A stretch of 64,000 bases of DNA. It comes from a virus. Position 1 is the stretch's first letter. Each line of letters starts with the position of its first letter. The notes under the pieces were generated by a model. It was not told the DNA's origin. It ran no database searches and saw nothing but the letters and a program-made list of their open reading frames with translations. The DNA is taken from positions 16,340 through 80,339 of IMG/VR virus record IMGVR_UViG_3300029319_000019; one strand, given 5' to 3'. The translations under genes and the position numbers were made by a program. Below, piece by piece: positions 46,048 through 46,620 of this stretch.

Positions 46048-46244
46048 CTAAAAAAAATTTAACCACCAAAATTTTTGAGCGTGTGTACCTACTATTGCAA
46101 AGACCCTACCTATGTTTCGGAGTTAGAGATACCCCGTGCATAAATATATATAAATTATATGTATGTTCTATTGCATAGACATTCGCTAGCTCTCGCGTAG
46201 TGTGTCGCGGTGATACACTCGTATAATCTAACAACAATTGTGAT

Positions 46245-46493
46245 ATGAATAAGCTAAGCACTTATCTTAAAGAAAACGGCTATATGCAAGCCAAAGTAGT
46301 AAATGGCCCTAATGGTGACTTCGTTGTTGCAGCTAAAGAGGATAACTCTATTGCAACATTCCCAGTAGGCAAGAACTCTCAAGGAGAAACAGACATCTTC
46401 GCATTCAACTATGTAGTAGGTACGCGTGACGGTATTAGTCAAGTAATTGCTACTGTTAATCAGTATAGTGAAACAGAGTTCCAAGTATTGTAA
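46245..46493 (+). CDS. First early gene, hypothetical 82-aa protein
   Basis: Own upstream motif and downstream terminator. High-expression codon usage. Confidence 0.75.
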   Translation: MNKLSTYLKENGYMQAKVVNGPNGDFVVAAKEDNSIATFPVGKNSQGETDIFAFNYVVGTRDGISQVIATVNQYSETEFQVL

Positions 46494-46499
46494 TTAGTT

Positions 46500-46529
46500 A
46501 GAGGCTTCGGCCTCTTTCTTTTCTTTTTT
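46500..46529 (+). terminator. Intrinsic terminator
   Basis: AGAGGC-TTCG-GCCTCT followed by a long T-tract. Confidence 0.9.
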
Positions 46530-46620
46530 CTGTTGTTTACTACAATACGAATAAGATACTTATTGTTCTATTGCAAAGACTTTAACTAGATTACGAGAGT
46601 GTGCGTTGTAGCGTTCATTC

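Follow-up and report, generated by a model that had tools for sequence, protein, structure and literature searches.

Where do the first rightward transcripts of a crAss-like phage begin, and which polymerase reads their start signal? CrAss-like phages inject a giant RNA polymerase with an unusual fold. The stretch of DNA analysed here, which we call the window, comprises 64,000 nucleotides (bases 16340-80339) of the 80.3-kb IMG/VR record IMGVR_UViG_3300029319_000019, which is about 93% complete and derives from an uncultured marine crAss-like phage. Its large terminase is approximately 40% identical to those of gut crAss-like phages, with matches among crAss-like phages of Bacteroides, Flavobacterium and Cellulophaga, and both portal and terminase match the corresponding PHROGs. 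A BLAST comparison of the window region with GenBank phages gave no match, and a search for tRNA genes in the window found none. The gene layout follows the crAss plan: a leftward block of virion and giant-protein genes extends up to 45687, the strand switch lies at 45700-46240, and a rightward block begins at 46245 and runs on into the replication genes, among them the DNA polymerase gene (49920-51809). A 2071-aa ORF containing DFDVD lies shortly before the window, at record 5759-11974 on the minus strand, and has genes for virion proteins of 1286 and 1936 aa as neighbours. A profile built from this ORF and two relatives matched the phi14:2 gp66 virion RNA polymerase (PDB 6VR4) with an E value of 1e-36, which, together with the DFDVD motif, indicates that the phage carries a gp66-type virion RNA polymerase (vRNAP).

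The only experimental study of early transcription by this polymerase was performed with phi14:2, whose early genes are transcribed by gp66 in a rifampicin-resistant manner; no common upstream motif was detected at the mapped gp66-dependent early 5' ends (10.1101/2020.03.07.982082). In the literature after that study we found no published promoter consensus for the crAss-type (gp66) vRNAP, and the word "promoter" is absent from a 2023 review of the Crassvirales. The injected crAss-type polymerase thus had no defined promoter, and the 28-nt element described here is a candidate for one.

The initial annotation had reported a motif in three copies in the early region of the window, and this was borne out. 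CTATTGCAWAGAC occurs as three exact plus-strand copies (46092-46104, 46168-46180 and 46568-46580), with no further copy elsewhere in the 80.3-kb record, including the 16 kb outside the window, and with 0 exact matches in 100 dinucleotide-preserving shuffles. All three copies continue in register as N5-CTA[G/T]-nTnnCG, and the consensus with relatives is a gap-free, asymmetric element of 28 nt, CTAKTGCAnAGAC-N5-CTAK-nTnnCG. The N5 spacer is free in sequence, fixed in length and has no pairing partner, while the second block is CTAG, or CTAT in some site-1 copies, including window copy 1. Beyond TTGCAA, the element has no dyad symmetry or inverted repeat, and it has no secondary structure of its own. 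A position weight matrix (PWM) built from the family scored 40-55 at the three window sites, compared with -3 for the best of 20 shuffled genomes. The shuffles for the exact match and the PWM comparison with shuffled genomes rule out a chance origin of the three copies.

Copy 1, termed "site 1" (46092..46119, plus strand; CTATTGCAAAGAC CCTAC CTAT GTTTCG; PWM 54.7), stands at the head of the rightward early module. Copy 2 (46164..46195, plus strand; TGTT followed by CTATTGCATAGAC ATTCG CTAG CTCTCG; PWM 39.7) has an ATG 77 nt after the element start, the first early ORF being 82 aa long (46245..46493, plus strand), without a family match and with homologues in many relatives. Copy 3 (46564..46595, plus strand; TGTT followed by CTATTGCAAAGAC TTTAA CTAG ATTACG; PWM 44.4) precedes the second early ORF of 62 aa (46681..46869, plus strand). 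The upstream TGTT is common to copies 2 and 3, whose starts are exactly 400 nt apart, as had been noted; in relatives this distance is 397-399 nt, and it reflects the length of the intervening gene. The earlier statement that each copy precedes an early gene holds for copies 2 and 3 but not for copy 1, which lies 76 nt upstream of copy 2 and has no gene of its own. Between the first ORF and copy 3, the strong terminator described earlier was found again as an intrinsic terminator on the plus strand (AGAGGCTTCGGCCTCT plus T-run, 46500..46530, with the stem at 46500-46515), and its stem carries a compensatory change from GGC/GCC to GCC/GGC in relative L167. A degenerate look-alike of the element, TGTGCGTGTGTGATTGCTAGTGCAGCAGTCATATTCG (a GTGTG box plus CTAGTGCAG..), is present at window 47622-47660 within a 36-aa hydrophobic ORF and may be a decayed copy or chance.

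We compared the locus with 80 terminase-linked IMG/VR loci, TerL 75-99% identical, oriented like the window. Mosaicism in the early region is high: homology to the window is typically lost at 46079 or at 46127-46131 and picks up again at about 46616. The 28-nt pattern proved specific in IMG/VR, where it returned 25 matches on 19 stretches, whereas a 15-nt pattern gave mostly single chance matches. Pattern matches and TerL-linked loci pooled to 28 distinct contexts, all with clade-specific flanks, which form four positional classes ahead of different genes or leaders. Every one of them (28/28) lies outside any ORF of at least 80 aa on either strand, and the orientation relative to the downstream ORF is identical throughout (28/28), with a same-strand ORF starting 65-154 nt downstream of the element, or 279-333 nt where an insert of about 200 nt intervenes. 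In an alignment of the window and six close relatives (A1), the elements are invariant and the sequence just 5' of them is variable. These comparisons define the element as a discrete unit, gap-free and asymmetric, that is under selection.

The leader at 46594-46683 is found without copy 3 in L005, L007, L011, L021 and L022, while in L026 and L122 a fourth copy precedes a leader whose window counterpart, at 48243-48321, lacks the element. Because it is present or absent ahead of the same leaders, the element is, on the same comparative grounds, modular and portable between cassettes. In whole-genome PWM scans, the complete relative G002 had exactly one site, and G001, G004 and G005 had none. 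Most relatives with the short polymerase type (see below) have a single element copy and a terminator after the first gene, so that genes further downstream need read-through or another signal. A search of the early regions of five element-less relatives (L014, L071, L084, L043 and L005) for a private repeated motif found none.

At L167:1654-1823, and in the matching part of L026, a GC-rich insert of about 200 nt without an ORF separates copies 1 and 2; it has a fold z-score of -1.5 and no Rfam match, and in these two relatives copy 1 would drive a small non-coding transcript. Several relatives' IMG/VR contigs, including L023 and L037, end 3-20 nt after the 13-mer, which fits assembly breaks at a strain-variable junction.

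The primary sigma factor of Bacteroidota recognizes promoters with the consensus -33 TTTG and -7 TAnnTTTG. A pattern scan identified a perfect promoter of this host type, TTTG-N19-TATTTTTG, on the minus strand at 46040..46070, which heads the leftward virion-gene block and is conserved in relatives. The start of copy 1 is 22 nt past the -33 box of this promoter, and the copy runs in the opposite direction, back to back with the promoter; lying beside the leftward promoter and pointing away from it, it occupies the position expected of a divergent early promoter. On the plus strand, the same scan found no TAnnTTTG between 43770 and 48032 of the window, in agreement with the earlier remark that no such box precedes the first genes. 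Likewise, host-type promoters had been placed from 49.2 kb onwards, and the next intergenic plus-strand TAnnTTTG is indeed located at 49219, directly after a strong plus-strand terminator with a 16-pair stem (49180..49215). This terminator closes a block of 3.1 kb which, counted from copy 1, contains no intergenic host-type -7 box, and it is immediately followed by the host-type box TTG-N20-TATATTTG (49196-49226, plus strand). At 49180-49226, host-type promoters likely take over from the motif-driven block.

Could the element nevertheless be read by the host polymerase, either as an unusual -33/-7 variant or through a phage factor bound to the 13-mer, like the T4 MotA box in middle promoters? 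[quoted passage not shown] However, the last -7 base is C, not G, in 28/28 contexts (the nearest match being TAGnT[T/C][T/A]C), TTG is missing in copy 1 (CCTA/CCAA) and copy 2 (ATG/GTG), and the best-conserved part of the element, the 13-mer, would fall in the spacer. Moreover, the same phage has a perfect TTTG-N19-TAnnTTTG 22 nt away, and no phage-made activator would yet be available for the first genes after the strand switch. An element version that tracks the vRNAP type, as described below, is also unexpected for a host-only promoter. We consider recognition by the host polymerase quite unlikely.

Each element copy is followed within a few bases 3' by a hairpin, and these hairpins are unrelated in sequence. 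Those reported earlier after copies 2 and 3 do fold on the plus strand as described. The hairpin after copy 2 (46195..46222, plus strand) consists of an outer GCG/CGU stem and an inner AGUGUGUC/GAUACACU stem and has a folding energy of -12.5 kcal/mol on the plus strand (z -2.3) and of -7.0 on the minus strand (z about -1); for the hairpin after copy 3 (46597-46620) the values are -9.3 kcal/mol (z -2.1) and -6.7 (z about -1), respectively. Both are stabler on the plus strand because their G.U pairs become C.A mismatches on the template strand. Among five relatives, 100% of the cells of the copy-2 hairpin are paired, with one compensatory pair (G-C, A-U, G.U) that is not significant at n=5. The copy-3 hairpin is the first stem of a separate leader, "type B" (46594..46683, plus strand), which is composed of the variable hairpin at 46597-46620, ATTCACCAC, the direct repeat ACCACATTTT present twice, an AATAGG/CCTATT hairpin at 46648-46665 and TTACATTATATA before the ATG. 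Relatives keep this leader with other stem sequences, and RNAalifold recovered only its invariant AATAGG/CCTATT hairpin. The type B leader is 89-98% conserved in relatives with differing flanking genes, is kept with or without copy 3 and under either vRNAP type, and may act as a second start signal, a small RNA or a translational leader. A search of Rfam with 44000-50000 of the window and with L167 gave nothing above noise.

The hairpins had been proposed to form part of the promoter, as in phage N4. The N4 early promoters P1-P3 are DNA hairpins with a GC-rich heptamer centred at -11, flanking inverted repeats and a 3-nt loop; their stems of 5-7 bp lie upstream of +1, are extruded by supercoiling and are read on the template strand by the injected N4 vRNAP, a T7-like single-subunit enzyme (PMC4496689). 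As in N4, a podovirus-like phage with a giant virion RNA polymerase has a few copies at the start of its early region, and these are expected to function without the host polymerase and ahead of any phage protein synthesis. Unlike in N4, the window element has no inverted repeat, and the hairpins are located 3' of it, have loops of 4-5 nt, differ between copies and are stabler on the plus (coding) strand, whereas those of N4 are read on the template strand; the copy-3 hairpin, in addition, belongs to the type B leader. The window vRNAP also differs, being a two-barrel gp66 homologue and not T7-like. The idea of an N4-like promoter hairpin found no support here. Because they lie 3' of the element and are stabler on the plus strand, the hairpins fit variable plus-strand 5' leader stem-loops rather than N4-type promoter hairpins.

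This behaviour of the adjoining hairpins, as plus-strand RNA structures with G.U pairs, would also suit an element that works at the RNA level, with transcription starting upstream, for example at the GAGCGTGTG box, and the 28 nt acting, once transcribed, in processing, stability, protein binding or antitermination. The GAGCGTGTG box (46077..46085, plus strand) lies upstream of copy 1 and is kept there in every relative, whatever version follows downstream, and it recurs at 46595; GAGNGTGTG has three plus-strand matches and no minus-strand match in 80 kb. A strict orientation suits an RNA signal as well as a promoter, and long early non-coding RNAs are known in phi14:2 (10.1101/2020.03.07.982082). 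At copies 2 and 3, however, the element precedes the GTGTG-type box, so that the order of the two is inconsistent, and a terminator or stop codon stands ahead of copy 3 and the class IV copies, at places that call for a restart signal. The N5 of fixed length and free sequence, with no pairing partner, in an element without secondary structure of its own, also argues against a function in RNA. We regard such a leader element as unlikely, if slightly less so than the other alternatives.

The comparison of site 1 with the polymerase genes provided further evidence. In every relative, site 1 keeps the frame GAGCGTGTRG...AC-CCC..CT, and its central part exists in distinct versions. The polymerase was typed only where its gene was on the same contig, which gave 11 genomes; searches for more relatives of the polymerase yielded few contigs that also include the strand switch. 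Seven genomes (the window, L021/G002, L011/G003, L135/G021, L064/G013, L041/G011 and G030) have the short type, an enzyme of about 2070 aa that is 41-80% identical to that of the window, together with ..CAAAGAC-N5-CTAK-nTnnCG at site 1. A long type, a fused enzyme of 4300-4800 aa, is accompanied by a GGGGTA..CACCCC hairpin version in three genomes (L016/G001, L071/G004 and L075/G015) and by GACCTC CTCAAAACAACAC CCCGT CTTG in one (L084/G005). The long fused enzymes carry the catalytic motif GSD[YF]DIDK near residues 3300-3700, and their catalytic segment is about 25-29% identical to that of the window. CAAAGAC-N5-CTAK-nTnnCG was thus present at site 1 of 7/7 short-type and 0/4 long-type genomes, which is a small and non-independent sample.

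In the TerL tree, the two types are interleaved: L016 (long) nests beside the group of the window, L021 and L011 (support 100/99), and G030 (short) is the sister of L084 (long; support 100/100). When mapped gene by gene, the packaging, structural and replication genes of G001 resemble those of the window about as closely as the G002 genes do (mostly 75-96% identity), and the two genomes differ sharply at the vRNAP block and site 1. Conserved genes lie between these two loci in both directions, over about 34 kb one way and about 20 kb the other, and the element version shows no co-variation with packaging or replication genes. In the genomes compared, the element version tracks the vRNAP type in discordance with the TerL tree, which is the new sequence-based evidence presented here. 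At record 1899-23350, the right end of which corresponds to window 1-7011, the whole vRNAP block has been swapped between near-identical phages. In G001 (TerL 94%), a 4428-aa fused GSDYDIDK protein with only approximately 25% identity in the catalytic segment stands in place of the polymerase of about 2070 aa and its neighbours. Long-type enzymes that have the "GGGG hairpin" version in common are only 26-32% identical to each other. Site 1 of long-polymerase relatives (L016/L014, L069, L071, L073 and L082) contains a GGGGT-loop-ACCCC hairpin followed by a small GC hairpin, e.g. GTACCC-CC-GGGTAC, and looks closer to an N4-like signal than the element of the window does.

A further early gene follows the element version. 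The gene at 48582-49172, the last one ahead of the terminator at 49180, encodes a 196-aa protein that all relatives possess; identity to the window protein is 89-95% in close short-type relatives and 35-46% in those with other site-1 versions; the homologues of L014, L012 and L009 are only 35-37% identical although TerL is 94% identical. Linkage to the early block is therefore an alternative to polymerase specificity. This protein could, for example, be a phage DNA-binding regulator for which the element is the operator, through which early or divergent late transcription would be controlled; relative to the leftward host-type promoter, copy 1 is situated at about -50 to -75, and a protein present in all relatives whose identity follows the element version would suit that role. 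However, the element has no dyad symmetry beyond TTGCAA and a single orientation in 28/28 contexts, copies 2, 3 and those of class IV are not near any leftward promoter, and G030 keeps the element core with a 196-aa homologue of only 31% identity. The early ORFs matched no family in Pfam and PHROG and, in particular, no DNA-binding family. An AF2 model of the 196-aa protein (pLDDT 83, beta-rich) had no Foldseek match, its best VIA Z being 3.4, and an Atlas search returned only unnamed viral hypothetical proteins, the best cluster scoring 0.85. An operator function has, in our view, a low probability.

The three same-strand copies at the strand switch, which coincides with the minimum of the cumulative GC skew, also recall non-transcriptional DNA sites, such as terminase (pac/cos) repeats, origin iterons or a recombination hot spot left by cassette shuffling, and homology breakpoints as well as several contig ends fall at the element. 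However, the copies are irregularly spaced (76 and 400 nt), most relatives have a single one, and both the constraint on 28 nt and the fixed orientation toward ORFs would be left unexplained. Readings as a packaging site or as origin iterons were rejected, because G001 lacks the element and yet keeps terminase and replication genes that are as similar to those of the window as the genes of G002 (TerL 94%, 168-aa neighbour 88%, replication proteins 82-95% identical). We judge a DNA site without a role in transcription to be very improbable.

Given these findings, we propose, at about even confidence, that the element would be the phage-specific promoter of the first rightward transcripts, read by the injected gp66-type vRNAP. 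The phage has its own gp66 homologue, and its rightward early module opens with the signal. The position of copy 1 opposite the leftward host promoter, the 3.1-kb block without a host-type promoter and the terminator at the end of that block also support a promoter. Against it, the present PWM has no match in the early region of phi14:2, and transcription could instead start from the clade-wide GAGCGTGTG box that closely precedes copy 1. The phage-specific early promoter for the virion RNAP that the initial annotation had suggested thus stands in part, as a strictly oriented, intergenic, portable unit that is not host-type and tracks the vRNAP, but the reading enzyme and the promoter role are what we infer. 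In the proposed mechanism, the 2071-aa DFDVD polymerase would be injected with the DNA and would start the first rightward (immediate-early) transcripts from the 28-nt element. Transcription would begin at or just after the 3' end of the element, around CTAG..CG, which predicts starts at about 46113-46122, 46189-46198 and 46589-46598, and with a start at this position each transcript would begin with the hairpin that follows the copy. In the lineage of the window, the element would have been copied downstream of terminators, where it would restart transcription, and recombination at the repeated copies would shuffle early gene cassettes in a manner resembling the PeSL cassettes described below.

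A promoter of this kind can be compared with several known systems. Promoters of the T7 class are contiguous duplex signals from -17 to +6 (PMC4496689). The element is similarly long, contiguous, asymmetric and private to the phage, and it contains more information than uniqueness in the genome needs; in contrast to the T7 class, however, it is made of two blocks with a free N5 spacer, its start position is a predicted one, and the fold of the window polymerase is unrelated. By this analogy, the architecture of the element is most likely closer to a long contiguous T7-class signal than to an N4 hairpin. Among motifs defined by experiment, the nearest counterpart for a two-barrel virion polymerase is that of gp96, the virion RNAP of Thermus phage P23-45, whose AT-rich pre-early promoters were anchored by ONT-cappable-seq starts and ChIP-seq; relatives of P23-45 with the polymerase have the motif, and relatives without the polymerase lack it (10.1101/2022.12.01.518664). 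Our case shares with P23-45 a two-barrel virion RNA polymerase, an own motif before the first genes and the logic of motif-polymerase co-occurrence. P23-45, however, is a siphovirus with an AT-rich motif on mapped starts, whereas the window element was defined by sequence comparison.

The phage of the window and phi14:2 have the same polymerase family, an early rightward replicative module and leftward modules from host-type promoters. Unlike phi14:2, where nothing common to the early 5' ends was seen and the PWM had no match, the window clade shares an early motif. The mosaic early region, in turn, resembles that of T4-type phages, in which a hypervariable region contains small, non-essential early genes bordered by PeSL (promoter-early stem-loop) cassettes (Arbiol et al. 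2010, PMC2839356). Recombination between PeSLs shuffles these cassettes, and their sigma-70-type promoter and terminator activities were shown experimentally (PMC2839356). In the window clade, too, repeated units bound small genes, and breakpoints (46079 and 46127-46131) and presence/absence differences fall at the element. In contrast to the strong sigma-70-type promoters of PeSLs, the signal of the window is not host-type and is a candidate promoter.

It is conceivable, although somewhat short of an even chance, that the element represents the first defined promoter of a two-barrel vRNAP of the Crassvirales, and that its core, CAnAGAC-N5-CTAK-nTnnCG, and the versions in sister phages form matched pairs with their polymerases that were exchanged together. 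If so, these natural specificity swaps between near-identical genomes would make the recognition code of this polymerase family accessible in vitro. With a precise 28-nt candidate and alternative versions in sister phages, recognition by the polymerase becomes a defined in vitro question. The comparison also shows shuffling of early gene cassettes in crAss-like phages.

The early region contains further sequences of interest. The palindrome ACAATTGT before the first ATG was considered as a signal and rejected, as it is not enriched (4 observed, 2.4 expected). TTACATT occurs 10-17 nt upstream of three early start codons (46664-46670, 47164-47170 and 47765-47771), and similar strings, ACATTT or ACATTA, stand before other early start codons; TTACATT may be a translation-initiation leader of a host group that is poor in Shine-Dalgarno sequences. 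Finally, the gap before the ORF at 47781 contains a perfect 12-bp inverted repeat, TTAAATCTCGTC / GACGAGATTTAA, with a 43-nt loop (47684-47750).
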